Positions 5,034-55,903 of a DNA stretch of 64,000 nt are shown one piece after another (the stretch's first letter is position 1; each line of letters begins with the position of its first letter). The stretch is from Planctomycetota bacterium. GTDB lineage: Bacteria; Planctomycetota; UBA11346. The notes beneath the pieces were generated by a model. The model had not been told where the DNA came from, made no database searches, and was given only the letters and a program-made list of their open reading frames with translations. Both the position numbers and the translations under genes were made by a program. The DNA lies in NCBI GenBank assembly GCA_038213805.1, contig JBBQSO010000013.1, positions 1-64,000 on the forward strand, read 5' to 3'.

Positions 5034-7337
5034 ATGAGCGATGACGACCCTCTGATCGGCTGGAGCAGCGAGACGCTGCGCTTCGACGCCCTGCTTGGGC
5101 GCGGCGCGATGGGCGCGGTCTACCGTGGCGTGCAGATCGGTCTCAACCGGCCGGTGGCGATCAAAATCATCGCACCGCACCTGGTCGGCGACGGCGCGCA
5201 CCGCGTGCGCTTCACGCGTGAGGCGCAGGTGCTTGGCCGGCTGGTGCATCAGAACGTCATCACCTGCCACGACGTCGGCACCCAGCGCGGCCCCGACGGG
5301 CGCGAGCTGTTCGTCATGGTCCTGGAATTCGTCGACGGCTGGAGCCTGGGCACGCTGATGCGGCGCCGCCCGCCGACCGTGCGCCAGGCGCTCGAGCTGC
5401 ACGCGCAGGCCGCGGACGGCCTCGCCGCCGCGCACCAGCTCGGTATCATCCACCGCGACATCAAGCCCGACAACATCATGGTCACGCGGCGCGAGTTCCA
5501 GGCCAAGCTCGCGGACTTCGGACTGGCCAAAGGTGACGACTCGGCGGTCCTCACCCACACTGGCGCGATCATGGGCAGCCCCGCCTACATGGCGCCAGAA
5601 GCCTGCCGCGGCGACACGCCCGGACCTTCCGGCGATCTCTACGGCCTGGGCTGCTCGCTGTTCCACGTGCTCACCGGCACCCCACCCTACAGCGGCAGCA
5701 GCGCCCTGGTGGTGCTGAACATGCACATGACCGCGCCACTGCCGCGACTCTCCGAACGCCGCCCCGATCTCGCCGGACTCGACAAGATGATGGCGCGCTG
5801 CCTGGGCAAGGTGCCGGCCGAGCGCGCGCCCGACGCGACGACACTCGCCGGCTGGCTGCGCGCGGCCGCCCGCAACGTCGCGGAGGAATTGCCTAGCGGC
5901 AAGACGGCGGGCACCGCGAGCGGAGCGCCAGCACCGACCCGGCCGAGCCTGGTCACAGCACGCGCCGGCCAGGGCCAGCGCGAGGACCGCGCGCAGTCGA
6001 CCCTGCTCGATACCAGCATCGCGGCGGCGCGGCCGCAGCGGCGCCTGCGCCTGATCATCGGCGGACTGGCGGCTGCGGTGCTGATCTGCACCGTCGTCCT
6101 GCTCGCGCGCGGCGGGCGTTCGAAGGCCACCGAGCCCGCGGTGGCGGTGGCTGGTCAGCCAGCCGCGCCACCGGTTGGTCCCCCTTTGGAACTGACCCAG
6201 GGGGCGTCCACGGCACGTGCGACCGTCCCGCTGGGCGCGGGACGCGTGTTTGAATTAAAGCCGGGCGAGGGCCTGCTCGACGTCTGGAGCCCGCCAGCAG
6301 GGTCGCCGCACATCCCAGCGCGCATCCCCGCCGGCGTTCCAGCGATCCAGCTGAGCACGGATGGGAATGAAGGCCTGCAGCACCTACGCCTGCGCCTGCC
6401 CACGGTGGGCGGTCGCACCGGAGTCGTGGTGGTGATCAACTCCGGAGTTCCCGCCGGCCGCACCCTGCTGGTGACCGTGCGGAGCGGCGGCGCGGCGCGT
6501 GGTCTGCGGCCGATCAAGCTCGCCGACGACGCCTGGCAGCGCCTCGTCATCGACTGCGGTGAGGCCGGAGGCGATGAAGTGGTGGTGAGCTGCAACGGGG
6601 CGCAACCCCTGGCGGTGGCGCGCGCCATCGCCTGGAGCGGTGCGCCGCCGGAGGCCGCGATTACGGCCTTCGTGCCGGGCACGCTGCAACCGCTGGGGCC
6701 GACGGGCACGGTTCGCGAACAGTTCCGCGGCGCGCTCGGCAACGTGGTGGTCGCCACCCAGGTCTTTCCCGATCCGCAGCGTCTGCGCATCGCGGTTTCG
6801 AATCTCCACCTCGCCGTCAACAAGGATGCGCTGCTCACCCTGACGCGCGGCATCGCCACCGCGTGGGGTGCCGATCCGACCCCGACCGCGACGGAATCCA
6901 ACCTGCTGACGTATGCAAGTGCAGCCATGCTGCAGAGCGTTGCCGAAAGCGCGGTGCGCGCAAAGGCCCAGGTGCTGGTCATCGTGCTCGGCAGCGAAGA
7001 CGTCCCAAAGATCCTGCCGCTGGGCTTCCAGGTGGCGTGCCGCTTGCTGAGCGATGGCGGCGTGTTGCCGGTCCTGCTGGTCGCGCCCGCCGGCTGGCAG
7101 GAACCTTTGCGGAGCAAGTGGGTCGAACGGCTGGACCTGCTGCAGGCCAGGGTTCCGCAGATGCCCGTCATCGACCTGATGGAGGTACCGATCGGTCTGG
7201 CGCGCCAGGATCTGCCCACCGATCTGCACAGTGCTGACGTCCACGCGAAAGTAGCCGCCGGCATGGCCGCCGGTATCGGCGAACTGCGGGCGCGCATCGC
7301 GTGGCAGATGGTCAATGGCGGATTGCGGACGAAATAG
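5034..7337 (+). CDS. Transmembrane Hanks-type Ser/Thr protein kinase with uncharacterised extracytoplasmic region
   Basis: LGRGAMGAVY, VAIK, HRDIKPDN, DFG, GSPAYMAPE; TM segment LIIGGLAAAVLICTVVLLA; C-terminal region homologous to the kinases at 48.5 and 53.3 kb. Confidence 0.93.
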   Translation: MSDDDPLIGWSSETLRFDALLGRGAMGAVYRGVQIGLNRPVAIKIIAPHLVGDGAHRVRFTREAQVLGRLVHQNVITCHDVGTQRGPDGRELFVMVLEFVDGWSLGTLMRRRPPTVRQALELHAQAADGLAAAHQLGIIHRDIKPDNIMVTRREFQAKLADFGLAKGDDSAVLTHTGAIMGSPAYMAPEACRGDTPGPSGDLYGLGCSLFHVLTGTPPYSGSSALVVLNMHMTAPLPRLSERRPDLAGLDKMMARCLGKVPAERAPDATTLAGWLRAAARNVAEELPSGKTAGTASGAPAPTRPSLVTARAGQGQREDRAQSTLLDTSIAAARPQRRLRLIIGGLAAAVLICTVVLLARGGRSKATEPAVAVAGQPAAPPVGPPLELTQGASTARATVPLGAGRVFELKPGEGLLDVWSPPAGSPHIPARIPAGVPAIQLSTDGNEGLQHLRLRLPTVGGRTGVVVVINSGVPAGRTLLVTVRSGGAARGLRPIKLADDAWQRLVIDCGEAGGDEVVVSCNGAQPLAVARAIAWSGAPPEAAITAFVPGTLQPLGPTGTVREQFRGALGNVVVATQVFPDPQRLRIAVSNLHLAVNKDALLTLTRGIATAWGADPTPTATESNLLTYASAAMLQSVAESAVRAKAQVLVIVLGSEDVPKILPLGFQVACRLLSDGGVLPVLLVAPAGWQEPLRSKWVERLDLLQARVPQMPVIDLMEVPIGLARQDLPTDLHSADVHAKVAAGMAAGIGELRARIAWQMVNGGLRTK

Positions 7338-30913: not shown

Positions 30914-30975
30914 GGGCGCAGGCCCTGGTGACGCCCACCCTATTCCCCCTCCATCAGCGAAGAACGGAACCTTCC

Positions 30976-32196
<1,221 letters not shown>

Positions 32197-32207
32197 GCCG
32201 AGCAGGA

Positions 32208-32340
32208 TCCGGAAGTCCGGAAGTCCGGAAGTCTTCAAGCCCCGGAAGCGCAGCGCGTACGGGGCGCCCCCCTCTCTATGGGTCGCCCGCGACTCCATCC
32301 CACGAGACTCCCGGACTTCCGGACTTCCGGACTTCCGGAC
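32208..32340. repeat. Inverted pair of octamer arrays between sucB and lpdA
   Basis: Arms at 32208-32234 and 32305-32340. Confidence 0.9.
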
Positions 32341-32361
32341 CCTCCCCCAAGGTTCCCAACC

Positions 32362-33777: not shown

Positions 33778-33780
33778 ACA

Positions 33781-33816
33781 GTCCGGAAATCCGGAGGTCC
33801 GGAGGTCCGGAAGTCG
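33781..33816. repeat. Single octamer array (GGAAGTCC type)
   Basis: About four degenerate units right after the lpdA stop; no adjacent inverted arm. Confidence 0.8.
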
Positions 33817-33984
33817 CGTAGCGCGGGGTCGGAATCGCGATCGAGGCTTGCGGGGGACGCGAGCGTGCGCCCTGTTGCGCGGACGCTGGCAGACCGTCGG
33901 ATCGGTGGTGGAACCGGCGGGGCCTGGCGCGAGGGTAAGGCTGCGACGGCGGGCAATGTCGGCGCGCGCAGCCACGAGGACCGC

Positions 33985-36524: not shown

Positions 36525-37994
<1,470 letters not shown>

Positions 37995-38067
37995 GACGGG
38001 TTCTTCCTACTTTCTCGGCTGTTCTCGATGCGCGTCTGCGGACTATTTCATGGTCAAAGTCTTCTCC

Positions 38068-38093
38068 GACTTCTGGACTTCCGGACCTCCGGA

Positions 38094-38095
<2 letters not shown>
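38068..38095. repeat. Single octamer array (GGACTTCC type)
   Basis: Direct reading, at the stop of the DUF1553 gene. Confidence 0.75.
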
Positions 38096-40307
<2,212 letters not shown>

Positions 40308-40373: not shown

Positions 40374-41231
40374 TCAGGCCGGACGTTCTGAACCGGCGCG
40401 CAGGCGCCACTCGCTGGGCGTGGCGCCCATGGCGCGGCGGAAATGCCGCGCGAAATATTCCGGGTCGCGGTAACCGACACGGCGTGCGACCTGGGCGATG
40501 GTCAGCGAACCTTCGGCGAGCATGCCTGCGGCGCGATCCATGCGTAGCTGGGCCAGGTACTTGAGCGGCGTAGTCCCGAGCGTGCGCTGGAACACCCGAT
40601 TGAGGTGCTGGGGGCTGAAGCCGGCGCGCCTCGCCAGGAATTCCAGCGTCAGCGGCCGGTCGACGTGGTTGCCGATCAGGACCAGCAGCTCCGCGACCAG
40701 CGGATCGGCGACGCCCTGGTCGAGCAGCCCGCGCGCCGCGTTGTCGCGGAACAGCTCGCGCACGATAAGATGCGCCCAGCCCGGGAACATCTGCAGGCGC
40801 TCCTCGCTGCGCGGTCGCGCGAACTCGCCCATGAAGCCGCGGAAGTAGCCATCGAAGCGCGACCCCGGCGGAATGAACTGGTGCGCCGGCGGGCCGAGCA
40901 GACGGAACGCATCCTGGCCGCCGGGCAAGGTCGCCAGCACGTGCAGCGAGCCGAGCGTGACCGCCGGTTCCAGGCAGTACCCGGAGTGCCACACGCCCGG
41001 CGGCACGATGGTCAGCCAGCCCGGCTCGAGCAGCAGCTCGGTGTCCTCGACCACCCACACCACGCGGCCACGGGTGACGTAGATGAAGTTGTAGTCCGGC
41101 ACGGTGCGGTGCTCGAGCGCGTAGTCACGCTCGTGATGCTGCAGCGAGCACAGCTGGGTCACCACGTGCATGGTGCCGAGAATGCGGTCAAGCAGGGCGT
41201 CGATGGGCGAGAGCGCGGGCGGTGTGGGCAT
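40374..41231 (-). CDS. AraC family transcriptional regulator
   Basis: N-terminal cupin; LARRAGFS..HL.R.F; VGYRDPEYFARHF; start uncertain. Confidence 0.92.
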   Translation of the reverse strand: MPTPPALSPIDALLDRILGTMHVVTQLCSLQHHERDYALEHRTVPDYNFIYVTRGRVVWVVEDTELLLEPGWLTIVPPGVWHSGYCLEPAVTLGSLHVLATLPGGQDAFRLLGPPAHQFIPPGSRFDGYFRGFMGEFARPRSEERLQMFPGWAHLIVRELFRDNAARGLLDQGVADPLVAELLVLIGNHVDRPLTLEFLARRAGFSPQHLNRVFQRTLGTTPLKYLAQLRMDRAAGMLAEGSLTIAQVARRVGYRDPEYFARHFRRAMGATPSEWRLRAGSERPA

Positions 41232-41370
41232 GGGGCGGTTCCCGACGCTCAGCATGCTAGCGCGCCCGGAGAAAATGAGGATCGGGGCATGCTGCGCGAC
41301 GTTGTCTTCCCTGGGACAGCGGGCCACTGGCCCGCTGTCCCAGGATGGAGACCTCCTGCGGCGGCGAAGC

Positions 41371-42599: not shown

Positions 42600-43781
42600 T
42601 CACACCAGCCTCGCGCCAAGCTTCTCGCGCAGCTTCGCGCGCCACGCCGGGGTGTGGTCGGCGTCGGTGACCGGCGCCAGGCACTCGACCAAGCGGCCGA
42701 TGGCGGCGTTGTGGTTGAGACGCTCCTGGTTGACCGCGACGATGGTCTCGGAGGTGATGATCTCATCGCCGACCACGCACAGTTCGGGCATGCACGCCAC
42801 GGTCGAGCCGCTGCGCACGATGTAGATGCCGATGCGGCCCTGTTCGGCGCAGACCTTCTCGATGTCCTTGGGGCCGACCTCGAAGGTGATGCCAAGCGCG
42901 CGCGCGTCGAGTATGCAGGTGTAGAGCTCTTCATACTGCGGGTCGATCAGCACCGGCTGGCCGCGCAGCAGCGCGAGCTTGGGATCGCTGCCGTCGGTGG
43001 CCCAGCGCCGCCCGCCACCCAGGGCCGTGGCCTTGGCCGCGGTGGCGCGGTCCATCAGCACGCAGTGCCCGAGGTAGTCGTCCAGGCCGAGGCTGCCGAG
43101 GATGCGCACGTCGGTGTTGGTCTCGATGAGGTGGCTCTTGAGCTCCTTCCAGTTGCGCACCTTCGGCGTGTCGAGCGCGTCGAGCAGGGTGTTGTGGAAG
43201 GCGTCGTAGCAGGTCAGCGAGAGGTCGCGCTTGTGCTTGCGCAGGTAGGTCGGCGTGACCTCGTGGTCGGTGCCGAGCAGCACCCCGCGCACCGCGCAGG
43301 TCGCGCCCGGCGGGGTGTAGTCGAACTCGAGCTGGTTGAAGACCATGCGGCTGGGTTTTCCCGGCCGCGTCAGGTCGAGCTGCAGGTGCATGCTGAGCGC
43401 CGCCTCGCTGACCTCGTGATCAAGGTCGTAGCGCAGCTTGTTGAGCATCAGCTCGACGCCGCTCTTGCCGGTGTAGTCGAGCTGGGTCTTGCCGGACCCG
43501 TCCTGATAGCGGCGCATGCGCTTGAGCGCCTGGTCAATCTCGTCGAGGTCGTGGCCGAAGCGGTCGGCGGCGCGCATCGTCGATTCGACGGCATAGCCGC
43601 TGCTCTGCCACAGCTGGATGAGACCCTCCTCAAGCTTGACGCGGCGCTTGTCCTCCTTGATCAGACGGCGCAGCGCCGCGACCAGTTCGGGGCGCAGCCA
43701 GCCCAGGGCGACGAGCCGCTTCAGCACATCGTCGAAGCTGCCCCCCTTGGGTGGGATGGCGACCAGCACCGGTTCGGACAT
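42600..43781 (-). CDS. Divergent ATP phosphoribosyltransferase (HisG)-fold protein with large helical insertion
   Basis: Colinear HisG-like blocks VAIPPKG, PTYL...DLSLTCYD, DVRILGSLGL, KDIE, IVRSGST, EIITSETIVAVN; GAGG RBS. Confidence 0.65.
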   Translation of the reverse strand: MSEPVLVAIPPKGGSFDDVLKRLVALGWLRPELVAALRRLIKEDKRRVKLEEGLIQLWQSSGYAVESTMRAADRFGHDLDEIDQALKRMRRYQDGSGKTQLDYTGKSGVELMLNKLRYDLDHEVSEAALSMHLQLDLTRPGKPSRMVFNQLEFDYTPPGATCAVRGVLLGTDHEVTPTYLRKHKRDLSLTCYDAFHNTLLDALDTPKVRNWKELKSHLIETNTDVRILGSLGLDDYLGHCVLMDRATAAKATALGGGRRWATDGSDPKLALLRGQPVLIDPQYEELYTCILDARALGITFEVGPKDIEKVCAEQGRIGIYIVRSGSTVACMPELCVVGDEIITSETIVAVNQERLNHNAAIGRLVECLAPVTDADHTPAWRAKLREKLGARLV

Positions 43782-43919
43782 GGGACGATTCCTCGGAGGG
43801 GCACAGGGTGCGATCCTCACCCGGGATCGCAAGCGGGGACGCCCGCGAACCGGCAGTCCACATGAGCACGGACGCAGGCCACGAGAGTCGAGACCAGCGA
43901 CCCTCGACACGAGGTTCCG

Positions 43920-45308
43920 CTAGTGTCGCCGCTCCAGCGCGATGCGCACCGCGACCCGCTCCGGCCCATCGCTGAGCAGCTGGGGCAGGGCGGCGCCCTG
44001 CGGCTTGTCGAGCAACTTGCGCAGTCCTTCGGCCGCACCCGGATCGCCGAGCTGATCGAGGAGGATGATCAGCCCGAGCCGCGCGCGCGCATCGGCGACG
44101 GCGTTGATGCGCGCCAACAGCGGCTGCGTCCAGCGCGCCGCGTCGTCGGCGGCGAGCACCGCCCAGGCGCGCGCCGGCCACCACGGCGAGCCGTTGCCGA
44201 GCGCGCCTTCGACCAGGGGCATGAGCTGCGCCGTGGTGAACCCGGCGAGCTCGGCGCGGGTGGCCACGTGCGCGGGATCGTGGCAGGCGGCGATGAACTG
44301 GTCACGGAACACCAGCGCCTGGACCTCGGCACCGTGGTCGCGCCACCACAGGTCCCAGGCGTGGCCGGCACCGGCGGCATAGCCGGTGAGCTGGCGCAGG
44401 GTCTCCGCAGCGGCGGTGCGCAGCTCGTCGCCCGAGCCGTCGGCGGCAGCGGCGCGGCACAGCACCTCCAGCGCGCGGCTGTCGCCGTTCGCGCCCAGGG
44501 AACGGGCGGCGGCGGCGGCGACCGCGGTGCTGCCGGGTGCCGCCAGCACCGCGGTCAGGGCCGGGCACAGGCGTGGGTCGCCGACCATCTCGCTGACTTC
44601 GATGAGCGCGAGCTGCTCGAGCCCGCGGCGCTCGCCGATGAGGCCGGCGAGCGGTGGAACCGCCGCCGCCTGCATGACCAGGGCGCCGAGGCTGGCGCGC
44701 TCGTCGCGGCGCACCAGGTCGTCGCTCTCGCGTCCGTAGCCGCACAGCACGGCCAGGCCCTGGGGGTCGCCGAGCAGCCCCAGGCCGCGTGCCGCGGACT
44801 GGCGGATGTCGGGCTCGCTGGCGCGCAGCAGCTCGCCGAGGCGGGCGAACGCGCCGGCGCCGCGCGCGCGGCCGAGGAGCAGGGCGCTGAGCTCGCGGAC
44901 GCGGCGGTCCGGGTCATGGCTGATACCCAGCACCAGCTTGGTGCCATCGTCCCCGCCGATGCTCGCGGCGACCGTCGCGACGCGCACGCGCACCTGCCAG
45001 TCGGGATCGTTGGCGAGCACCCCTAGGTCGGGCAGCACCTCGGTCCCGCGCCGGATCAGCGCCGCCATTGCTTCATTGTGGACGTCGGGTCGCGGATCGG
45101 TGATACCGGCGATCGCCTGCTCCCACGGTTTGCCTTTGCCGGCCTTGGCCTCGGGCAGGGGCCCGACCGCAGCTTTGAGGTCTTTGACCGCCTGGATGAC
45201 GTCGACGCCCTGGACCGGGGGCACATCTTCGGCGCGCAGCGTGGGTGCGACGGGCGCAGCGAGCGCGGCGACCAGCAAAATACGAAGGATGCAAGTCGGG
45301 ATGGCCAT
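43920..45308 (-). CDS. Exported HEAT-repeat protein
   Basis: Signal peptide; repeated D.D..VR..A motifs and LG..GD..A helices. Confidence 0.85.
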   Translation of the reverse strand: MAIPTCILRILLVAALAAPVAPTLRAEDVPPVQGVDVIQAVKDLKAAVGPLPEAKAGKGKPWEQAIAGITDPRPDVHNEAMAALIRRGTEVLPDLGVLANDPDWQVRVRVATVAASIGGDDGTKLVLGISHDPDRRVRELSALLLGRARGAGAFARLGELLRASEPDIRQSAARGLGLLGDPQGLAVLCGYGRESDDLVRRDERASLGALVMQAAAVPPLAGLIGERRGLEQLALIEVSEMVGDPRLCPALTAVLAAPGSTAVAAAAARSLGANGDSRALEVLCRAAAADGSGDELRTAAAETLRQLTGYAAGAGHAWDLWWRDHGAEVQALVFRDQFIAACHDPAHVATRAELAGFTTAQLMPLVEGALGNGSPWWPARAWAVLAADDAARWTQPLLARINAVADARARLGLIILLDQLGDPGAAEGLRKLLDKPQGAALPQLLSDGPERVAVRIALERRH

Positions 45309-45520
45309 GCGCGTATGATGGAGTCGGGAAAACCGTGGCAACCAGCGTCCTGGCAGCAGGTTGGCAGTCTGCAACCGGTTGCGCCACCGCGCTCATGGCG
45401 CACACGTCAGCCCTTGCGGCCCCCATGCTCAGCCGGTATCACCCGCTCCCCACCTGAACGAGTCCTCGGCCCCTCGCCTTTCTGCTTTCCGCCTTCTCCT
45501 TCCCGATTCGGAGCATCCTC

Positions 45521-46472: not shown

Positions 46473-48533
46473 ATGGTCGTCGGCAAGGGAGTGGAGCGGA
46501 GTATCTGCGGGCTCGTGCTCGTCTGCCTGCTGCTGGCCGTCGCTGTGGTCACCAGCGGGGCCGTGGAGCCGCTGGGTGCGGAGCGCCGCTCCGCGCTCAC
46601 CGCCCTGCACCGGGATCTGGTCGCTGCGCGCGACGTGTGGAGCGCGCTGCAGGTGGAAGCCCTCGCCCGGACGCGCGGCCTGGCGTTGCCGCCGGTGCTC
46701 GGCGCATCGCGCATCATCGGCGACCCGCTGTTCGCCTTTCCGATGAGCATCGACCGTTGCTGGGAAGGTGGCGGCTGGACCGTGGTGTGGGCCTGCGATC
46801 GACTGTACTTCCTGGGCCTCGACGGCTGCCCGCTGGCCCCATCGCACCAGCTTGGACGAGCGCCGATGCGGGTCGGCCTGTCCCGCGACGGCCGCTGCAT
46901 CTGCACCATCGACCATGCGGAGCACGGCCCCTGGCGGTTGGCGGGCACCCGCCTGGGCGATGGCGCCGCGACCCTGCGCGCCGAGATCCCCGAGCAGGAC
47001 GGCGACTTCTATGCCAGCGAACCCCTGCTGTCCGACGATGGCGGTTCGATCATGTTCTTCGTCCTGCGCCGTGCCCCCCCGGACGGCCACGACGAGTTCC
47101 GCACCATCGTGGTCGCGCCGGGCGGCGTGCAGGTGATCGGCGCAGCGCTCGGCGAACTCGGCCTCGGGCCGGCGGGCGCATGGGCGGCGGTGTGGAACCA
47201 GGAATTGAAGCGCTCCGAGCTGCGCACCCAGGGACGGGTCAAGCCCTTCTCCAAGATCGCGTGTGGCGGGGGCACTGCTGCCTGCGGCGATCAGAATGGC
47301 GTGCAGGTGGTGAGGCCGGACGGCAGCCTGGTCGATATGCCCGTGCCCTTCCCGCTCGGCAATAATCCCGAACTGCTCTCCGTGGGCGACTGGCTGGTCA
47401 TCGGCGCGGACGTGGCCGAGGGAGCATGCGTCGCGTTCTATCGCTGGTCCGAGGTCGCCGCCGACCCGCGCGCACCCCCGGTACGCGTGGTCGAGGGCCG
47501 CTGCAGCGCGGCCAACCGCGATCCCAACGCGCTGTGGCTGTTCCGTGGACGCGACTACGCGATCGTGGACTGCAGCGGTGCGACGCTGCGCATCACGCCG
47601 CTCGGCGTTGCGACGGAAACCATCCAGATGATCAGCGACGAGTTCGACCGCTGCCTGGTGCGCTACGCGGGCGGCGTCCTGGTCTGCGACCCGGCCGGCG
47701 CCGAGCTGTGGCGCGGCACATGCAATGGCTGGTACCTCATCAACCGCGACCTGCTGGTGATCCGGCGCGACCGCGACGCGCAAGCGCCGCATCAGCTGGT
47801 GCGCCTCGCGCGGGATCCGCGCGAGCGTGCGGAACTGCCGCTGCCGCTGGACAAGCGCGCCTGGCGGCTGCTCTACGACCACACCCACGCCGTCATCAGC
47901 GCGCGCTGCGACCGCGCCTGGGAGCGCATCGATCCGCGCAGCGGTCGCGTGGTGGCGCACGCGGAAGCCGACGAGCCGCCCTTCGAGAGCATCGTCGAGC
48001 GCGCCGGACGCCGGGTGGTCGCCTCCGCCCGGCTGCGCGCGCGTGGGCCGGCGCCGGACCGCGTCGAGGAGCGCCTGCTGTGCACGGACGCGTGGCAGAA
48101 CGCGGGCACGACCACCATCATCGGCGGCGGCGCCCATCTGCTCACCCGCGACCGCAACGGCCAGTGGGCCGACCACGGCTCTTTCGATGGCGCCATGCGC
48201 CTGGGCAACGATTCGCGCGGCCGCCTGGCGCTGACGCCGCACGCCATGGTCTACCTCGGCTCCATCGTACCCGCCGGCGAGCGGCTCACGCTGGTCAAGG
48301 ATCCCACGGTCACGGTGGATGACCTCCCGGCCGGTGACTGGCAGGTGCAGCGCGATGGCACCTACACACCGCCCGGCGGCCGGGCACTGCGCTGGGACGA
48401 GACGGCCGGCTCGCACCCGCTCACCCTGCGCGCCCCGACCCGCGGCGCGCTGCTCGCGGTCACGGCGAGCGCGATCCTCGAATTGACGCCGGCGGCGGCC
48501 ACGCTGCTGGGACGGCCCGTGGAGACGCGATGA
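46473..48533 (+). CDS. Exported hypothetical protein (kinase-partner family, copy 1)
   Basis: N-terminal hydrophobic signal; full-length paralog of 51273..53336; ATGA overlap with the kinase gene. Confidence 0.8.
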   Translation: MVVGKGVERSICGLVLVCLLLAVAVVTSGAVEPLGAERRSALTALHRDLVAARDVWSALQVEALARTRGLALPPVLGASRIIGDPLFAFPMSIDRCWEGGGWTVVWACDRLYFLGLDGCPLAPSHQLGRAPMRVGLSRDGRCICTIDHAEHGPWRLAGTRLGDGAATLRAEIPEQDGDFYASEPLLSDDGGSIMFFVLRRAPPDGHDEFRTIVVAPGGVQVIGAALGELGLGPAGAWAAVWNQELKRSELRTQGRVKPFSKIACGGGTAACGDQNGVQVVRPDGSLVDMPVPFPLGNNPELLSVGDWLVIGADVAEGACVAFYRWSEVAADPRAPPVRVVEGRCSAANRDPNALWLFRGRDYAIVDCSGATLRITPLGVATETIQMISDEFDRCLVRYAGGVLVCDPAGAELWRGTCNGWYLINRDLLVIRRDRDAQAPHQLVRLARDPRERAELPLPLDKRAWRLLYDHTHAVISARCDRAWERIDPRSGRVVAHAEADEPPFESIVERAGRRVVASARLRARGPAPDRVEERLLCTDAWQNAGTTTIIGGGAHLLTRDRNGQWADHGSFDGAMRLGNDSRGRLALTPHAMVYLGSIVPAGERLTLVKDPTVTVDDLPAGDWQVQRDGTYTPPGGRALRWDETAGSHPLTLRAPTRGALLAVTASAILELTPAAATLLGRPVETR

Positions 48534-51043
48534 GCACGCGCGCGCCGGATCCGTTCCTAGGATTCAGCAACGGGCAGCTGCGCTTCGATGCGCTGCTCGG
48601 GCGCGGCGCCATGGGCGCGGTCTACCGCGGTCGCCAGCTCGGTCTCGACCGCGAGGTGGCGATCAAGATCATCGCGCCGCATCTCGCTGACGATCAGCAA
48701 TACCTGGAGCGCTTCCGCCGCGAAGCGCAGGCGCTGGGGCGGCAGGTCCACCCGCACATCATCACCTGCCATGACGTCGGCCCATGCGTGGGGCCGGATG
48801 GCGGCACGGTGATCGCCATGGTCCTTGAGTTCGTCGATGGCTCGAGCCTGGGCGAGCTCATGCAGCGCGGGCGGCTGACAGTGCGCACCGTCTTGGAGCT
48901 GCACGCGCAGGCGGCAAGCGGACTGGCCGCGGCGCACCGGCTCGGCATCATCCACCGCGACATCAAACCCGACAACATCATGGTCACGCGCACGGGCTCC
49001 GCCAAGCTCGCGGACTTCGGTTTGGCGCGGCACGACGACTCGGCGACCATGACCACCAGCGGCACGATGCTGGGCAGCCCCGCGTACATGTCGCCGGAGG
49101 CGTGCCGCGGAGAACGCGTCGGCGCGCGCGGCGACATCTACAGCCTGGGCTGCTCGCTGTTCCACGCCTTGACCGGCCGCACCCCCTACGAGACCGGCAA
49201 CAGCTTCGCCGCGATCCGCCACCACACCTCGTCGCCGATTCCCGAGATCCGTGAACGCCGGCCCGACCTGGCCGGTCTCGATCCCATCCTCAAGCGGCTG
49301 CTCGCCAAATCCGAGGACGGGCGCCCGGCGGATGCCGCTTTGGTGGCCAGGGAGCTCGCCGAGCTCGCCCGCGCGCTGCCGGGGGACGCGCTGGCGGGCC
49401 GGATGGATCCCACCGCGCACGCCGACATCCCATTGGCGAGGACGCTGATCGCGGACCCTGTCCCGGTGAACGCCGCGCCACGCCGCAGCGGACGCGATCG
49501 CGCGGACGCCCGCCCCGGACCGCCCGCGACGCGCGGGACGACCACGCCCCGTGCCCGCTGGCGGCGCGATCTGGCCTTCATCGCCGTGATCGCCGGCTGC
49601 CTGATGGGCGGCGGTGCGATCCTGACTTGGCGGGGCGGCGGTGGGACGGCGGCCGCGCCCCCGGCGAGCGGCGCGAACGAGGCCCAGGCCCTGGCTCTCG
49701 CTGCGGCCCTCGCCGAGATCGAGGGCCTGATCGCGGAAAAGCGCCTGGCCGAGGCAGCACAGCGGCTCGCTGACGTGGGTCCCGCCGACGCGGGCGAAGG
49801 CCGGATCACGCCCGCCCTGGCCGAACTGATACAGCGGCTCGCCCGGGTGAAAGCGGAGTTGAGCGAGGCGGGCTTCAGCCCGACGCGGCCGCCACCATCT
49901 CCGCATGCGCCCGCGGCACCGGCCGCCCACAGCGAAACCGTGGGCGTACGCGGCCCGGCTCCCGCCATCCCGGCGGAACCGCTGGCGCAACCGCTCGTCC
50001 AGCTCGTGCCCGGCATCGATTTGGTCGGGTGGGCAGCGCCGCCGGGCTTTGCCGGGCTGCCCGATCGCCTGCCGGGCGGCGGTGGCGCGGTCGTGCTGAG
50101 CGGCTATCCGTCAGCCGGCGGTGCGGCGGGATGGGAAAGCGAGGGGCGCCAGGTGCTGACCCTGCGCGTGCCGGAAGGGCGGCGTGGCGGCAACCTGTTG
50201 CTGCTGGTGACGGGCCAGCAGGCAGGACGCCCGCTCGCGATCACCGCGATCATGGGAACCACGCGCCAACCGCTGCCTGGGACGGTGCTGGCTTCCGGCG
50301 GGTGGGATCTGGTGCGCATCGCCGTGCCGGCGGCTGACCATGAGGTCGAGGTCGCCGCGTCGGGCGACCTGCGTCTGGCGGTGGCGCGCGCCGTGTGGGC
50401 GCCCGAGGGCGTCCCAGCACCATCGCCTGCGGCTGCACACATCATCCCCGGCACGCTGCAGCGGCTGGTGGCCGATGAGTACCGTTTCCCGACCACGCTG
50501 GCGAGCGTGGACGTGGCATTGCGTCGCGCCCGCGCCGCCGGGCACGGGCACCGCTCCATGCTTGCCATCCCTGCTGCCGATCGCTTTGCGGCGGGCGTGG
50601 CAGCGACGCTGGGCCGGGCACTGGCGGAAAGCGATGTCCCGGTGATGACCTACACGGGAGGCATCGTGCTGGATCCGGACAAGGTGTCGGCGCGCATGGC
50701 GGATCGCGACCTTCTGTTCGTCTACATCTCCACGGCCGCCCCCTGCCAGCTCGGGTCGGCGTTCGGCGCGCTGTGCCACGATTTGGTCGCGGGCGGCCAC
50801 GTGCCGGTGCCGATTCTGGGCCCGGAAGCATGGCAGGGCGGCGCCCGCGAAGGCTGGGATCGGCTGCTGGAAGACTTGGCGCATGCGGTCGCGGGCCTGC
50901 CGGTGATCGATCTGCGGCAGGTACCGCTCTTCCAGGCGCGGCATCAGCTGCCCCTAGGGCTGCTGGACCCGACCGTACAGGAGCTGATCTCCTGTGGCCT
51001 GATCGCCGGCGTGCAGGATTTGCAGGCGCGCCTCGCGTGGTAG
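48530..51043 (+). CDS. Transmembrane Ser/Thr protein kinase (copy 1 of tandem module)
   Basis: GRGAMGAVY, HRDIKPDN, DFG, GSPAYMSPE; TM segment FIAVIAGCLMGGGAILTW. Confidence 0.93.
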   Translation: MSTRAPDPFLGFSNGQLRFDALLGRGAMGAVYRGRQLGLDREVAIKIIAPHLADDQQYLERFRREAQALGRQVHPHIITCHDVGPCVGPDGGTVIAMVLEFVDGSSLGELMQRGRLTVRTVLELHAQAASGLAAAHRLGIIHRDIKPDNIMVTRTGSAKLADFGLARHDDSATMTTSGTMLGSPAYMSPEACRGERVGARGDIYSLGCSLFHALTGRTPYETGNSFAAIRHHTSSPIPEIRERRPDLAGLDPILKRLLAKSEDGRPADAALVARELAELARALPGDALAGRMDPTAHADIPLARTLIADPVPVNAAPRRSGRDRADARPGPPATRGTTTPRARWRRDLAFIAVIAGCLMGGGAILTWRGGGGTAAAPPASGANEAQALALAAALAEIEGLIAEKRLAEAAQRLADVGPADAGEGRITPALAELIQRLARVKAELSEAGFSPTRPPPSPHAPAAPAAHSETVGVRGPAPAIPAEPLAQPLVQLVPGIDLVGWAAPPGFAGLPDRLPGGGGAVVLSGYPSAGGAAGWESEGRQVLTLRVPEGRRGGNLLLLVTGQQAGRPLAITAIMGTTRQPLPGTVLASGGWDLVRIAVPAADHEVEVAASGDLRLAVARAVWAPEGVPAPSPAAAHIIPGTLQRLVADEYRFPTTLASVDVALRRARAAGHGHRSMLAIPAADRFAAGVAATLGRALAESDVPVMTYTGGIVLDPDKVSARMADRDLLFVYISTAAPCQLGSAFGALCHDLVAGGHVPVPILGPEAWQGGAREGWDRLLEDLAHAVAGLPVIDLRQVPLFQARHQLPLGLLDPTVQELISCGLIAGVQDLQARLAW

Positions 51044-51272
51044 ACGCGAGACCAGGGCGCCAGTGGCCCGGTGCAGGGCCTGCTGTCGACGCAGTGAGGT
51101 GCGCCGCCAGGGGACGCAGCTGCTCCGTACCGTTGCCGCCTGGCACCGGATGCCCAGCGCGGGCAAGCGCGGCCCGCTCCTACGCCAGGCCGCCACTGGC
51201 GCCCACCCCATTCCGGTGCGATCCTAGCACCGGCCGATACGCAAAACTGCCCGCAACCGGGCTGGAGTTCCG

Positions 51273-53336
51273 ATGAGGTGCAGCGCAGTCGCGAGGTGGA
51301 TGGCAGGCGCGCTGCTGACGGCCGTCCTGTGCAGCCGTGACGCCTCCGCCGCTGCGGTGGAAGGTCTCGACCTCGACCGCCGGGCGCAGCTGACGACCCT
51401 CCATGACTCACTGGTGCACCAGCGCGACATCTGGAGCGCGTTGCAGCTTGAATCCTTCGCGCGCAAGCGCGGTCTGGAGCTGCCGCCTGCACTGGGCGAG
51501 GCGCGCATCATCGGCGATCCGCTGTTCGCCTTCCCGATGTCCATCTCCCGCGTCTGGGAAGGCACCAACTGGCAGGTGGTGTGGGCCCGCGACCGGCTCT
51601 ATTTCCTGCGCCCCGACGGCTGTCCCATCGCCCGTTCGCGCGGCCTCGGGCGCATCCCGCTGCGCATGGCGATGTCCGCCTACGCCCGCCACATCTGCAC
51701 CGTCGACCGCCAGGACAAAGGCCCCTGGATAGTGAGCGTAAGCCACACCCTCGACGGGACCGAGACCTTGCACTGCGAATTCCCCTCCCTGCCCGGCGAG
51801 GACTGGCTGCCCGAACCGACCCTCGCCGACGATGGCAGCGCGTTGGCGATGGTCATCAACCGCCATGACGCAGGTGGCCACGACCACTTCCGCCTGGTGA
51901 CCGTCAATGCGGACGGCGCGCACACCATCGACGAGGAACTCGGGGTGCTCGGGATCGGCCCCGGCAACGCGTGGCTGGCGGTGTGGAACCAGCGCCGCGA
52001 GCGCACTGAACTGCGCCTCGGCGGCAATGCGCTGCCATTCACAAAGATCCTCTGCGGCGGCGACACGGCGCTGTGCAGCGGGGACGGCCGACTCGGCCTG
52101 GCGCGCGGCGATGGCACCATCGCGCCGATGCCGGCCCCCTTCCCGCTGGGCCAGAACCCGCAGCTGCTCGCCTGCGGCGGATGGCTGGCTATCTGTTCCG
52201 ACCACGGCGAACCCTCACGCACCGCGTTCTACCGCTGGGCCGAGCTCGGCGCCGACCCCGCTGCCCCGCCTGTGCGCGTCGTCCCGGGCCATTGCTTCGA
52301 GTGCGTGCGCGATCCCGGGGCGCTGTGGCTGGCGGATGGACGCACCTACGCGAGCGTCGACTGCATGCATCGCGAAGGCCTGCGCTTCGCCACCCTGGGC
52401 ACCGCCCCCGACCCCGTGCAGATGATCACCGATTCTCTCGACCGCTGCCTGATCTCGATGGAGAGCGCGCAGCTGATCTGCGCGCCCGACGGCACCGAAC
52501 TGTGGCGCGGCCGCGCCGAGAGCTGCGCCGTGCTCACCGGCGACCTGCTCATGGTCCGCACCACCAGCGCCGGCAAGGCCCGACGGTCGCTGGTCCGCCT
52601 CGATCCCGACCCCGCGCAGCGCACCAGCCGACCGCTGGCGCTCGACGACCGCGACTGGCATATCACCTACGATCGAACTCATGACGCGGTCATGGCCCGC
52701 TGCGCCGACGACTGGCGGCGCTTCAATCCGGTCAGCGGCGTCGAGACCGCGCGCGCGACGCCCGGCGTGGCGATGGCGCCCTACAGTGACCTCACTGATC
52801 AGAAGGGCAGGCGCATCACCGACCTCGCCCGGCTGATCCCGCGCGGCCTTTCGCACCTCCCGTTCGCCGAGCGTCTGCTCGCCCACGACGTCTGGCGGTT
52901 GGCCGGAAACACCTACATCGCCACCCCCTACGAACACCTGCTTGAGATCGATGCTGCCGGCACGTGGACAGACCTCGGCCAAAGCGAGGGCAGCTCGCGC
53001 CTGGCCAGCGATGCGCGCGACCGCCTGGTGATGACCCGGCACACCGGCGAGACCCTGTCGGTCCTGGAGCGCGGCGGCGATGGCCGCATGCACCTCTCCC
53101 CCCTGCCGGACGCCCCGACCAAGGGTCTGCCCGATGGCTCCTGGCAGATCGGACGCGACCTGCAGTTCGCCGCCCCCGGCGGACAGCCGCTGAGCTGGGA
53201 TGATGCAGTCGGCTTCCGGCCGATCACCCTGCGCAATCCGTCCGGCAGCGGACTCTTGGCGGTCACGGAGTCGGTGATCATCGAGTTCACTCCCGCCACC
53301 GTGGGTCTGGTCACCAAGCACGCGGGTGCGCCATGA
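51273..53336 (+). CDS. Exported hypothetical protein (kinase-partner family, copy 2)
   Basis: Signal peptide; shares RD.WSALQ.E...RIIGDPLFAFPMSI with copy 1; ATGA overlap with the kinase gene. Confidence 0.8.
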   Translation: MRCSAVARWMAGALLTAVLCSRDASAAAVEGLDLDRRAQLTTLHDSLVHQRDIWSALQLESFARKRGLELPPALGEARIIGDPLFAFPMSISRVWEGTNWQVVWARDRLYFLRPDGCPIARSRGLGRIPLRMAMSAYARHICTVDRQDKGPWIVSVSHTLDGTETLHCEFPSLPGEDWLPEPTLADDGSALAMVINRHDAGGHDHFRLVTVNADGAHTIDEELGVLGIGPGNAWLAVWNQRRERTELRLGGNALPFTKILCGGDTALCSGDGRLGLARGDGTIAPMPAPFPLGQNPQLLACGGWLAICSDHGEPSRTAFYRWAELGADPAAPPVRVVPGHCFECVRDPGALWLADGRTYASVDCMHREGLRFATLGTAPDPVQMITDSLDRCLISMESAQLICAPDGTELWRGRAESCAVLTGDLLMVRTTSAGKARRSLVRLDPDPAQRTSRPLALDDRDWHITYDRTHDAVMARCADDWRRFNPVSGVETARATPGVAMAPYSDLTDQKGRRITDLARLIPRGLSHLPFAERLLAHDVWRLAGNTYIATPYEHLLEIDAAGTWTDLGQSEGSSRLASDARDRLVMTRHTGETLSVLERGGDGRMHLSPLPDAPTKGLPDGSWQIGRDLQFAAPGGQPLSWDDAVGFRPITLRNPSGSGLLAVTESVIIEFTPATVGLVTKHAGAP

Positions 53337-55903
53337 GCGCCGCGCCCGGCGACGGCGATCCGTTCGTCGGTTTCGCCAACGGCCAGCTGCGCTTCGAGGC
53401 CCTGCTCGGCCGCGGAGCGATGGGCGCGGTCTACCGCGGCCGCCAGCTCGGGCTCGACCGGCGGGTGGCGATCAAGATCATCACCCCGCACCTCGCGGAC
53501 GACGAGCTCTATCTCGAACGCTTCCGCCGCGAGGCGCAGGCGCTGGGCCGCCAGATCCACCCGCACATCATCACCTGCCACGACGTCGGGCCATGCCCCG
53601 GTCCCGAGGGGCGCACGGTGATCGCCATGGTCCTGGAATACGTCGACGGTGCGAGCCTGGGCACGCTGCTGCGCCAAGGGCCGCTGCGCGTGCGCGCCGT
53701 CCTCGAGCTGCACGCGCAGGCGGCGCTCGGGCTGGCCGCGGCGCACCGCCTCGGCATTGTCCACCGCGACGTCAAGCCCGACAACATCATGGTCACGCGC
53801 GACGGCGTGGCCAAGCTCGCCGACTTCGGGCTGGCGAAGGCCGACGGCCTCGCCGGCGTGACCACTAGCGGCACAATGATGGGCAGTCCGGCCTACATGT
53901 CGCCGGAGGCCTGCCGCGGCGAAGTGGTCACCGGCCGGGGCGACCTCTACAGCCTGGGCTGCTCGCTGTTCCATGCCCTGACCGGCAAGCCACCGTACGA
54001 CACCACCAACAGCTTCGCGGCGATCCGCCACCACACCACCTCGCCGGTGCCGGATCTCTGCGCCCGGCGCCCGGATCTGCACGCGCTCGAACCGGCCCTC
54101 AAGTGCCTGCTCGCCAAGCTTCCGGAGGAGCGGCCCGCGGACGGTCGGGAGGTCGCGAAGACGCTGCGCGCCCTGGCGGCCACGGTATCCGCCGATCTGC
54201 TGGCGGGGCGCCTCGACCCGACCGCGCATGGCGACATCCCTCAGGCCATGACACTGGTCGAGCTGCCGGCTGCAGTCCCGCGCACGACCCCGCACCAGGC
54301 CCAACCGGCCGCCGTCGCCGCCGCGCGTCTGACCAAGTCCCGCACGGCGCGGGGGCGGCGCGACCTGATCTTCCTCATGGTGGTGGCCGCGCTCGCCACC
54401 GCAGGTTTGGTCATCGCCATGCGCTCCCACCAATCCGCGCCCGCGCCGGAGCGATCGGTGACAGCGACCACTGGCGGACTGGACGAGTCGCAAGCCCTGG
54501 CCCTGGCTGAGACCCTGGCCACCGTCGAGGGCCTTATCGCCGAGCGTCGCCTGGAGGAGGCCGCGCGCGTGCTCGCCGCGCAGACCGCGGCCACCACCAT
54601 CGATGATCGTCAACTGCCGGCAGCGCTGAGTGGCCTCAGCCAACGCCTGGCGCGTGTCCGGGCCGAACTCTCGGCCGGCGGTCTGCCCACCACCACCAGC
54701 ACGGCCACCACCGGCACCGCCGGCACCGCCCGCCCTCAGGTTTCAGTCGTCGTACCCAGCGGTATGCGCGCGGCACCGGTGTGGCCGGCGACAGAACCCC
54801 TCGCCGCACCACTGGTCCAGCTGGTGCCGGGCCGTGACATCGCCGGCTGGCAGGTGCCTGCCGGCTATCCCACCCTGCCCGAATGCCTGCCGGGTGGCGG
54901 CGGGGCGGTGGTGCTCAGCGCCTTCGCACCTGGCGGCGATGCGGTCCGCACCGCGCGCGAGGGCCGGCAGGCGCTGACCCTGCGCCTGCCGGATGGTCGC
55001 CAGGGCGGGCGCCTGCTGGTGCTGCTCAATGGCCACTACGGCAAGCGCCAGCTCGAATGCACCGCCCTGGCCGGCACCCAGCGCCTGAGCCTGCCGGCGC
55101 AGACGCTTGGCCGTGGTTGGCAGCTCGTAAGCGCCGATCTCGCCACGTCGCCTCCGGCCCAGGGCCTGGAGATCGCCTCCTACAGCGACGCCCACCTGGC
55201 CGTGTCGCGCGCGGTGTGGTCGCCGGCAGCAGCCATCGCCGCGAGCGCCGCCCGCATCATCCCCGGCACCCTGCTCGCCTGCGGCACCGACGCCGGCCCG
55301 CTCAGCTTCGGCCTGGCGTCCATGCTCGAGCCGTGGCGGCGCAACCATGCCACCGGAGTCCGGCGGATCATCGCGCTACCTGCCGGCAGCGGCGGGGGCG
55401 AACGCGTGCCGGCAGCACTCACCCGCAACGTCGCCGGCACCCCCGGTGGCGTGATCCACCACGATGGCGCAGACTTCACGGCGGCCGCCACCGCGGCGCG
55501 CAGCGCCAAGGTTGACCAGCTGGTGATCCTGCTGCCGACCGTCGCCGCCTGCCCGCAGTTGCGTAGCACAATCGAAGTCTGCAGCGGCCTTGTCAGCGCT
55601 GGCATCCTGCCGGTGCTCGTGATCGGACCCGAGGCGTGGCAGGAGGATCGCCGAACAGGCTGGGACCAATTCCTGAGCGCGCTGGCGCACCGCTTCGCCG
55701 GCATACCCGTCATCGACCTGCGCCAAGTGCCGATGTTCCAGGCCCGGCACGAGCTGCCGACGGATCTCGGCGACGCAGGCGTCCAGGCACTGGTTGAGGC
55801 CGGCCTGGCAGCCGGCCTCCAGGACCTCCAGGCTCGCCTCGCGTGGCAGCTTCAGGAGCATCCCGGCGGCGGGATCGAGGGCGAGCTGCACATCGGCGAT
55901 TGA
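53333..55903 (+). CDS. Transmembrane Ser/Thr protein kinase (copy 2 of tandem module)
   Basis: HRDVKPDN, DFG, GSPAYMSPE; TM segment LIFLMVVAALATAGLVIAM. Confidence 0.93.
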   Translation: MSAAPGDGDPFVGFANGQLRFEALLGRGAMGAVYRGRQLGLDRRVAIKIITPHLADDELYLERFRREAQALGRQIHPHIITCHDVGPCPGPEGRTVIAMVLEYVDGASLGTLLRQGPLRVRAVLELHAQAALGLAAAHRLGIVHRDVKPDNIMVTRDGVAKLADFGLAKADGLAGVTTSGTMMGSPAYMSPEACRGEVVTGRGDLYSLGCSLFHALTGKPPYDTTNSFAAIRHHTTSPVPDLCARRPDLHALEPALKCLLAKLPEERPADGREVAKTLRALAATVSADLLAGRLDPTAHGDIPQAMTLVELPAAVPRTTPHQAQPAAVAAARLTKSRTARGRRDLIFLMVVAALATAGLVIAMRSHQSAPAPERSVTATTGGLDESQALALAETLATVEGLIAERRLEEAARVLAAQTAATTIDDRQLPAALSGLSQRLARVRAELSAGGLPTTTSTATTGTAGTARPQVSVVVPSGMRAAPVWPATEPLAAPLVQLVPGRDIAGWQVPAGYPTLPECLPGGGGAVVLSAFAPGGDAVRTAREGRQALTLRLPDGRQGGRLLVLLNGHYGKRQLECTALAGTQRLSLPAQTLGRGWQLVSADLATSPPAQGLEIASYSDAHLAVSRAVWSPAAAIAASAARIIPGTLLACGTDAGPLSFGLASMLEPWRRNHATGVRRIIALPAGSGGGERVPAALTRNVAGTPGGVIHHDGADFTAAATAARSAKVDQLVILLPTVAACPQLRSTIEVCSGLVSAGILPVLVIGPEAWQEDRRTGWDQFLSALAHRFAGIPVIDLRQVPMFQARHELPTDLGDAGVQALVEAGLAAGLQDLQARLAWQLQEHPGGGIEGELHIGD

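Follow-up and report, generated by a model that had tools for sequence, protein, structure and literature searches.

PknD of Mycobacterium tuberculosis is a Hanks-type Ser/Thr kinase with an extracellular beta-propeller sensor. The histidine kinases LuxQ, TorS and VirA work with separate periplasmic co-sensors (LuxP, TorT and ChvE, respectively). To our knowledge, only a handful of the outer domains of bacterial Hanks-type receptor kinases, PASTA above all, have an understood mode of signal perception, and extracytoplasmic co-receptors encoded by a gene of their own are established among histidine kinases and barely among Ser/Thr kinases. Here we describe a locus of a Planctomycetota bacterium (assembly GCA_038213805.1) in which an exported, most likely beta-propeller protein, A, is encoded directly upstream of a receptor-type Hanks kinase, K, and in which this two-gene unit is present twice in tandem (A1–K1 and A2–K2). 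The locus lies in a stretch of 64,000 nucleotides, hereafter the window (contig JBBQSO010000013.1, positions 1 to 64,000, forward strand). We propose, at a rough probability of 45%, that each unit encodes a sensor of the envelope or of glycans, specific to this lineage and built from two parts, a co-sensor, A, and a receptor kinase, K.

Results

The module consists of two A–K units separated by a short spacer:

46473..48533, forward strand: A1, a most likely Sec-exported beta-propeller protein of 686 amino acids (aa), with the Met at 46473 taken as the start; open reading frame (ORF)
48530..51043, forward strand: K1, a receptor-type Hanks Ser/Thr kinase of 837 aa; ORF with a Pkinase match
51044..51272, no strand: spacer between unit 1 and unit 2, 229 bp
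51273..53336, forward strand: A2, a most likely Sec-exported beta-propeller protein of 687 aa; ORF with an AlphaFold2 (AF2) model
53333..55903, forward strand: K2, a receptor-type Hanks Ser/Thr kinase of 856 aa; ORF with a Pkinase match

The ORF calls bear out the two tandem units that a first-pass annotation of this DNA had noticed, and in each the stop of the A gene overlaps the start of the K gene by 4 bases. An alternative A1 ORF starting at 46308 (741 aa) merely adds an Arg/Pro-rich extension that overlaps the upstream SDR gene. A1 and A2 are, as that annotation had also stated, colinear and diverged, with 46% identity over 681 residues (E = 0). K1 and K2 are 55% identical overall, and the likeness of their kinase domains, likewise claimed at first pass, amounts to 76% (289 aligned codons) against 48–49% in the outer part (outer domain, 351 codons), with the linker and membrane helix at 44%. 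The spacer contains no promoter-like site and a single terminator-like site on the opposite strand; across the module region, the same scan gives no promoter-like sites and three terminator-like sites, a count not above that of shuffled sequence (2.1 expected). Another sample from the same study yields contigs that join SDR to A1, cross the A1/K1 junction and run from the K1 3′ end into the intergenic region, as well as a single contig containing all of A2 together with the A2/K2 junction, each with 0–3 differences. No one contig of this sample covers the entire module, and one of the two runs is possibly the source of the assembly itself.

Both kinases carry an N-terminal Pkinase domain (PF00069) that scores far above the cut-off of 31.7 bits (K1, 150.4 bits, E 8e-44; K2, 142.1 bits, E 3e-41). 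A pattern search with Hanks motif definitions taken from general knowledge, as were the SGNH block definitions used below, finds the G-loop, the VAIK lysine, the HRD..N loop, DFG and APE/SPE in K1, K2 and the paralogue K3. A single hydrophobic 19-mer follows (K1 348–366, K2 345–363). Since a cluster of Arg residues precedes this sole membrane helix, the kinase domain is predicted to be cytoplasmic and the C-terminal 470–490 residues to lie outside (N-in/C-out). In K1, the kinase domain spans approximately aa 1–290, the membrane helix aa 348–366, and the jelly-roll and SGNH-like outer module approximately aa 480–837. Judged by their motifs, K1 and K2 are catalytically complete Hanks kinases with one predicted membrane helix.

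The outer part belongs to no Pfam or NCBIfam family that we could find. We modelled the last 372 residues of K2 from a 14-sequence alignment (predicted local distance difference test (pLDDT) 82.8, predicted template modelling score (pTM) 0.85; model m91c3e31fb303), and two domains can be distinguished:

54797..55249, forward strand: K2 outer domain 1 (K2 aa 489–639), a predicted beta jelly roll resembling a carbohydrate-binding module (CBM)
55262..55849, forward strand: K2 outer domain 2 (K2 aa 644–839), a predicted SGNH-hydrolase-like alpha/beta domain

In VIA structure comparisons, the jelly roll aligns with CBM29 (1w8u; Z 10.6, root-mean-square deviation (rmsd) 2.7, 120 residues) and with the CBM22 part of 2w5f (Z 10.0); CBM35 matches are found too, and identity to the CBM matches is 6–12%. 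The alpha/beta domain aligns with the peptidoglycan O-acetylesterase Ape1 (8gkd; Z 11.1, rmsd 3.6, 171 residues) and with GDSL/SGNH proteins at Z 8–9.4, the upper value belonging to the GDSL protein 4rsh. These Z scores stand only moderately above a background of 7–8. A Foldseek search with the same model ranks Ape1, CE2 esterases and YxiM highly, all of which share the order of jelly roll followed by SGNH domain. Neither the catalytic Ser after the first strand (block I) nor the C-terminal His (block V) is conserved in the 14-sequence alignment, in which the only invariant columns are L, P, W, G, G, W, I, D and R, and no SGNH/GDSL Pfam match to K appears even at E 0.1. Because the catalytic residues are not conserved, the outer module more likely binds than hydrolyses, and we take it to be a non-catalytic, probably glycan-binding sensor.

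A1 begins with a strongly hydrophobic segment (residues 11–29), and A2 with a weaker hydrophobic stretch followed by an A-x-A site. Pfam scans of A1 and A2 at E up to 0.1 give no family and only two chance-level matches, with no NHL or WD40 among them, and A2 and A3 have no NCBIfam match. Here we define the A family by full-length colinear homology over about 700 aa, a signal peptide, and the N-terminal motifs W-S/T-x-L-Q and G-D-P-L-x-A-F-P; A1 and A2 both conform in a 20-sequence alignment. The AF2 model of A2 from this alignment (pLDDT 88.4, pTM 0.87) shows a disordered signal region, two N-terminal helices and then about 60 strands. Foldseek returns at least 500 matches to it at E ≤0.001; the best among the matches listed are nearly all tandem WD40-like propellers, and the long alignments are to tandem-propeller proteins. 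VIA gives Z up to 12.6 and hundreds of generic propeller matches, with 479 chains at Z ≥8. The propeller fold is therefore seen in the model and its structural matches, and profile matches to WD40, PQQ, TolB/PD40 or NHL were not obtained. No specific functional relative of A2 stands out among the Foldseek and VIA matches, and an ESM Atlas search with A2 gave a best score of 0.85, under the useful range. From the model, A is most likely a Sec-exported all-beta protein with a tandem beta-propeller fold.

The coupling of A to K is conserved in a sister species (G401), whose genome has both pairs with the overlap kept, the last A codon and the first K codon sharing a base. The flanks are also as in the window, running from SDR through A1 into K1 and from K2 into an aminotransferase gene, with the contigs breaking inside the kinase domains. 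Between the two species, identity is 88% for A1, 73% for A2, 94% for the K1 kinase domain and 74% for K2 335–856. These four A proteins form a kinase-coupled clade of five members together with a metagenome protein, P0006, which is 52% identical to A2; the remaining A family members fall below about 31% identity to A1 or A2. All five members lack a loop of about 20 residues present in A3-type proteins, and six cysteines are invariant among them. In a FastTree tree of the A family, for which support is SH-like (Shimodaira–Hasegawa-like) only, the clade has a stem of length 1.01 and stands apart from A3, which groups with its same-genus orthologues (support 99). The clade falls beside genus g4 (support 93), a placement that is unsafe because of the long stem.

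We then compared rates of nonsynonymous (dN) and synonymous (dS) divergence, between the paralogues and between this genome (G000) and G401. All values are Nei–Gojobori (NG86) estimates, which are unreliable at a G+C content near 87% at third codon positions and at high divergence:

Paralogues K1/K2, kinase domain: dN 0.18, dS 0.58, dN/dS about 0.3
Paralogues K1/K2, outer module: dN 0.48, dS 0.94, dN/dS about 0.5
Paralogues A1/A2: dN 0.52, dS 0.71, dN/dS 0.73
G000/G401, six other genes: dS 0.16–0.29, dN/dS 0.03–0.24
G000/G401, A1: dN 0.065, dS 0.20, dN/dS 0.33
G000/G401, K1 kinase domain: dN 0.030, dS 0.18, dN/dS 0.16
G000/G401, A2: dN 0.175, dS 0.47, dN/dS 0.37
G000/G401, K2 335–856: dN 0.176, dS 0.54, dN/dS 0.33
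G000/G401, K2 kinase domain: dN 0.066, dS 0.29, dN/dS 0.23

The extracytoplasmic parts change faster than the kinase domains, and the divergence of each A matches that of its cognate kinase's outer domain. The first-pass annotation had supposed diversified outer parts, which in its conjecture would feed a common phospho-output; by domain, the paralogue ratios are higher in A (0.73) and the outer module (about 0.5) than in the kinase domain (about 0.3). Recent gene conversion of the K1/K2 kinase domains was considered and set aside: their dS of 0.58 is below the 0.71–0.94 found elsewhere, yet since it is far from zero, conservation of the domain fits better than recent conversion. Between the two species, A2 and the K2 outer part have a dS of 0.47–0.54, two to three times the six-gene background. 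Possible sources of this excess are allele exchange, relaxed constraint together with estimation bias, or non-orthology.

A complex of A2 (residues 36–683) with the outer domains of K2 (495–842, a construct that excludes the helical stalk at 366–484) was predicted with scores of 0.68, 0.53 and 0.42 (median 0.53), with all three controls at 0.00, a result classed as weak support. At least 67% of contacts agree between runs, and partner pLDDT is at least 79. In the benchmark for this procedure, 116 of 157 solved complexes attain the mark, as do 2 of 215 mismatched pairs; those that attain it with scores of 0.60 or lower are only 18 of the 157 and both of the passing mismatches. These counts hold only roughly here because custom alignments were used. 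With the conserved coupling and the duplication of the pair as a unit taken as a prior, the weak prediction raises the odds that A2 binds the K2 outer domain to about one in two.

The genome holds further homologues of both genes; a count of additional copies had been suggested at first pass. A3 is encoded on another contig and is 24–29% identical to A1 and A2, and two further kinases, K3 and K4, carry the same outer module, that of K3 being 31–32% identical to those of K1 and K2 (tblastn):

C26:3175-5703 (equal to L005:3175-5703), reverse strand: A3, an 842-aa ORF
Window 5034..7337, forward strand: K3, a paralogous kinase outside the module, with a Pkinase match; its upstream gene is BshC-like
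C8:82329-84941 of G000 (equal to L006:6330-8942), reverse strand: K4, a receptor Ser/Thr kinase

A 734-aa protein upstream of K4 (L006:9067-11271), which has a weak PQQ_2 match, was tried as an A analogue and rejected as unrelated (0.6% by hhalign against the A profile).

With a single-protein query, the A family is found in 16 of 23 genomes of this bacterium's own taxonomic family and in none of 377 elsewhere in the phylum sample; a profile detects it in 37 of the 48 genomes that make up this family. The K outer module is likewise found by profile in 14 of 23 genomes of the family and 0 of 377 elsewhere. Against 1.84 billion representative proteins, the A profile gives 190 matches at E ≤0.001, 96 of them at E ≤1e-30, and full-length members have 588–765 residues. 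A word-based protein search returns four proteins for A2 and, for the K2 outer part, only K2 and its G401 orthologue. A and the K outer module thus appear to be two uncharacterised protein families, found among the genomes sampled in one planctomycete family only.

Outside the kinase-coupled clade, A has a recurrent neighbourhood. An A3-type gene adjoins a kdsA-like gene in 15 of the 21 relatives' genomes examined, where flanks are short. On its other side, where the flank reaches, lie a coaC-like flavoprotein gene and then a waaA-like gene for a transferase of 3-deoxy-D-manno-octulosonic acid (Kdo). The kdsA gene near A3 scores 364 bits against an NCBIfam cut-off of 242; the waaA-like neighbour matches the Pfam Kdo-transferase domain and falls under the NCBIfam equivalog cut-offs. 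A scan of metagenome contigs adds five A loci, all A3-like and kdsA-adjacent and none with a kinase, two of which show the flavoprotein and transferase genes. The position beside kdsA and Kdo transferase genes suggests an envelope context, and A3 is predicted to be an uncharacterised exported propeller protein in a lipopolysaccharide (LPS)-core gene neighbourhood, single-copy across many genera of the family. As such a conserved neighbour of Kdo/LPS-core genes, A3 is noteworthy in its own right.

An independent second copy of A occurs in genus g11, at L071:6013-8079 (reverse strand) in G412 and as two tandem A fragments on a short contig, L073, in G413. A small, unrelated kinase ORF precedes the G412 copy at a distance of about 2.1 kb, and an ABC-2 transporter pair follows immediately downstream of the copy. 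A broken ORF between this A copy and the kinase ORF was compared with the K outer module and is unrelated (hhalign 0.1%), leaving this locus as a hint only.

Four other species of the genus keep the flanking genes in synteny and lack the A–K module. The SDR and aminotransferase genes of G142 lie about 0.5 kb apart, with the site empty (L070:3562-4053). The same site is occupied in G288, G404 and G402 by a stretch of roughly 2.3 kb (L067:3889-6169 in G288, and likewise in L068 and L069); the G288 stretch carries genes for a MerR regulator and for a CarH-like, MerR/B12-binding one. Because the module is missing or replaced in these congeners, we conclude that its 9.4 kb occupy a variable site and are lineage-specific among the genomes searched. 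Pfam and NCBIfam scans (PADLOC was not scanned) find no mobile-element, toxin or defence genes beside the module. As a separate observation downstream of this site, three of the congeners encode a 470-aa Ser/Thr kinase between the aminotransferase gene and pdxJ (L067:7569-8981, forward strand, and the same place in L068 and L069); in the window, these two genes are adjacent (57369/57384), with no kinase between them.

The window has a G+C content of about 70%, and the genes surrounding the module are typical of planctomycetes (PSCyt1/PSCyt2/PSD1, DUF1501). Upstream are a row of 2-oxoglutarate dehydrogenase E1, E2 and E3 genes followed by a glycoside hydrolase family 52 protein (28124-36120, forward strand) and the usual planctomycete pair of a PSCyt1/PSCyt2/PSD1 cytochrome-like protein (737 aa) and a DUF1501 protein (489 aa; together 36525-40307, reverse strand), beside which lies an AraC-type regulator (40374-41327). 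A 436-aa protein that matches nothing in Pfam or NCBIfam (42600-43910, reverse strand), 77–81% identical in congeners, adjoins a HEAT-repeat protein (43920-45374).

Discussion

We propose that K sits in the inner membrane with its Hanks kinase domain in the cytoplasm and presents, on the outside, a helical stalk, then a CBM-like jelly roll and a catalytically dead SGNH-esterase-like domain. A would be secreted, translationally coupled to K, and would dock on the outer module of its own kinase. There it may deliver or gate a ligand, most likely an envelope or environmental glycan, whose binding would change kinase activity. The analysis itself shows how the genes are built, which folds the models take, that the coupling is conserved, how the families are related and that the outer parts diverge in parallel; that A touches K, that a glycan is the signal and what the output would be are inferences. 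The pair would have originated in one small planctomycete lineage, when a copy of a conserved envelope gene of the A3 type was joined to a copy of a K3/K4-type kinase; a duplication of the whole pair would have followed, after which each A would have diverged together with the outer domain of its kinase as the kinase domains stayed alike.

A stronger form of the co-sensor proposal makes A an obligatory secreted propeller co-receptor of a Hanks kinase with a pseudo-esterase, glycan-reading outer domain. The two pairs would be insulated and would read different ligands, with A2 and the outer part of K2 undergoing diversification or exchange at a rate above the genome background. We consider this form rather unlikely. 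If true, it would provide a bacterial parallel to the receptor-kinase/co-receptor pairs of plants.

Several observations weigh against a two-part sensor. The A1/A2 clade with its kinase link is a minor side branch of the family on a long stem, comprising four representative proteins and one orthologue. A3, K3 and K4 each lack an adjacent partner of the other type, and relatives with a single-copy A in the kdsA context still have kinases bearing the K outer module, with no A as neighbour. None of the 190 A-profile matches is a fusion of A with a kinase, the longer proteins matching single propeller blades only. The fold matches of the K outer domains are moderate (Z 10–11), with no ligand shown, and the A2–K2 score lies in a range in which, unless the prior is strong, a pass is wrong more often than it is right. 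The first-pass annotation had read the locus as a co-receptor/receptor-kinase pair, and this reading survives in part. The overlap kept in the sister species, the parallel divergence and the weak complex score favour it; across the family, the partner is mostly kinase-free. Indeed, the outcome that the annotation had named as telling against such a pair, partner homologues that mostly occur without kinases, is what the A family as a whole shows, with a K-type kinase adjacent at none of the 32 other loci.

The same observations lend themselves to a simpler account, which we regard as doubtful and yet the most serious of the alternatives. A and K may share an operon without binding each other, with A keeping the kinase-independent envelope role of A3 (for example as a periplasmic scaffold or an outer-membrane/LPS-related factor) and K sensing or regulating the same process. 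That the A family is overwhelmingly kinase-independent and sits beside Kdo genes, that K-type kinases mostly stand alone and that support for the A2–K2 complex is weak are all as this account would have it. It fits poorly with the 4-base overlap kept in both pairs of both species, with a pair duplicated as a unit and not gene by gene, and with A and the K outer domain diverging in step. The distance of the A1/A2 clade from A3, with its stem of 1.01, the lost loop of about 20 residues and the six invariant cysteines, also argues against an A that simply retained the role of A3.

The rates raise another alternative, one that is partly compatible with a sensor. The module may be a fast-evolving, polymorphic surface-recognition cassette, active in self/non-self or phage/predator recognition or itself the target of such antagonists, with its outer parts under diversifying pressure and alleles exchanged between lineages. 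A has a relatively high dN/dS, at 0.73 between paralogues and 0.33–0.37 between orthologues against 0.03–0.24 for the six other genes, and the synonymous divergence of A2 and the K2 outer part (0.47–0.54) exceeds that of the six genes (0.16–0.29) and of A1 and the K1 kinase domain (0.18–0.20). A third type, P0006, exists in a metagenome, and the module occupies a variable site. No dN/dS value exceeds 1, however, and the NG86 estimates behind this pattern are unreliable at such third-position G+C; the known variation consists of two genomes and one extra protein, and the Pfam and NCBIfam scans gave none of the mobile-element, toxin or defence neighbours. We therefore hold a recognition cassette to be improbable. 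Least probable is a K outer SGNH-like domain that is still an enzyme on an acylated glycan, with A presenting its substrate or binding its product, for although the architecture is that of Ape1 and CE2 esterases, the first-strand Ser and C-terminal His are not conserved and SGNH/GDSL Pfam matches are absent even at E up to 0.1.

We thus retain the two-part sensor as the preferred reading. The pairing is known from two species, the organisms are known from metagenome assemblies only, and the computational support for binding is weak. If A does bind K, two diverged cognate pairs joined to a conserved kinase domain would constitute a natural paired experiment on specificity and insulation. The first-pass annotation had not recognised the locus as a described system, in agreement with the scans, which place neither A nor the K outer module in a Pfam or NCBIfam family. 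Literature searches of limited depth likewise turned up no kinase with an SGNH-like outer domain and no propeller partner of a planctomycete kinase.

Among known families, the module can be placed by profile only with the Hanks kinases, the matches to PASTA kinases, PknD and SGNH enzymes falling short of membership. The PASTA kinases (PknB/PrkC/StkP) resemble K in combining a Hanks kinase and one membrane helix with an outer domain thought to read envelope glycan. The PASTA kinase model NF033483 is the best NCBIfam match of K, at 251 bits against a cut-off of 450 and over residues 20–388 only. Pfam finds no PASTA repeats in K, whose outer module is instead a predicted jelly roll and SGNH-like domain. 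PknD shares with the module a membrane Ser/Thr kinase and an extracytoplasmic beta-propeller, but here the putative propeller is a separate secreted protein encoded by the upstream gene, and K has an unrelated outer module of its own; the NCBIfam PknD model matches K at 80 bits against a cut-off of 839.

The K outer module resembles Ape1 and the CE2 esterases in its predicted domain order, with a CBM-like jelly roll ahead of the SGNH alpha/beta domain (8gkd, Z 11.1; 2wao, Z 8.7; Foldseek E 3e-7 to 1e-6). It differs in its lack of a conserved catalytic Ser and His, in an identity of 7–13% and in its attachment to a kinase through a membrane helix. The hybrid two-component sensors of Bacteroides (BT4673, 3va6) also use a propeller as extracytoplasmic sensor, and A matches 3va6 at Z 10.6 over 172 residues, as one of the 479 generic chains with Z ≥8. 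There, however, the propeller is fused to a histidine kinase. LuxP–LuxQ, TorT–TorS and ChvE–VirA likewise rely on histidine kinases, and on a periplasmic binding protein in place of a propeller, whereas the kinase here is of the Hanks Ser/Thr type. With binding of A to K as we infer it, the arrangement proposed here would nonetheless be the one used by these systems, in which kinase activity is set by a secreted binding protein that attaches to the kinase's outer domain.

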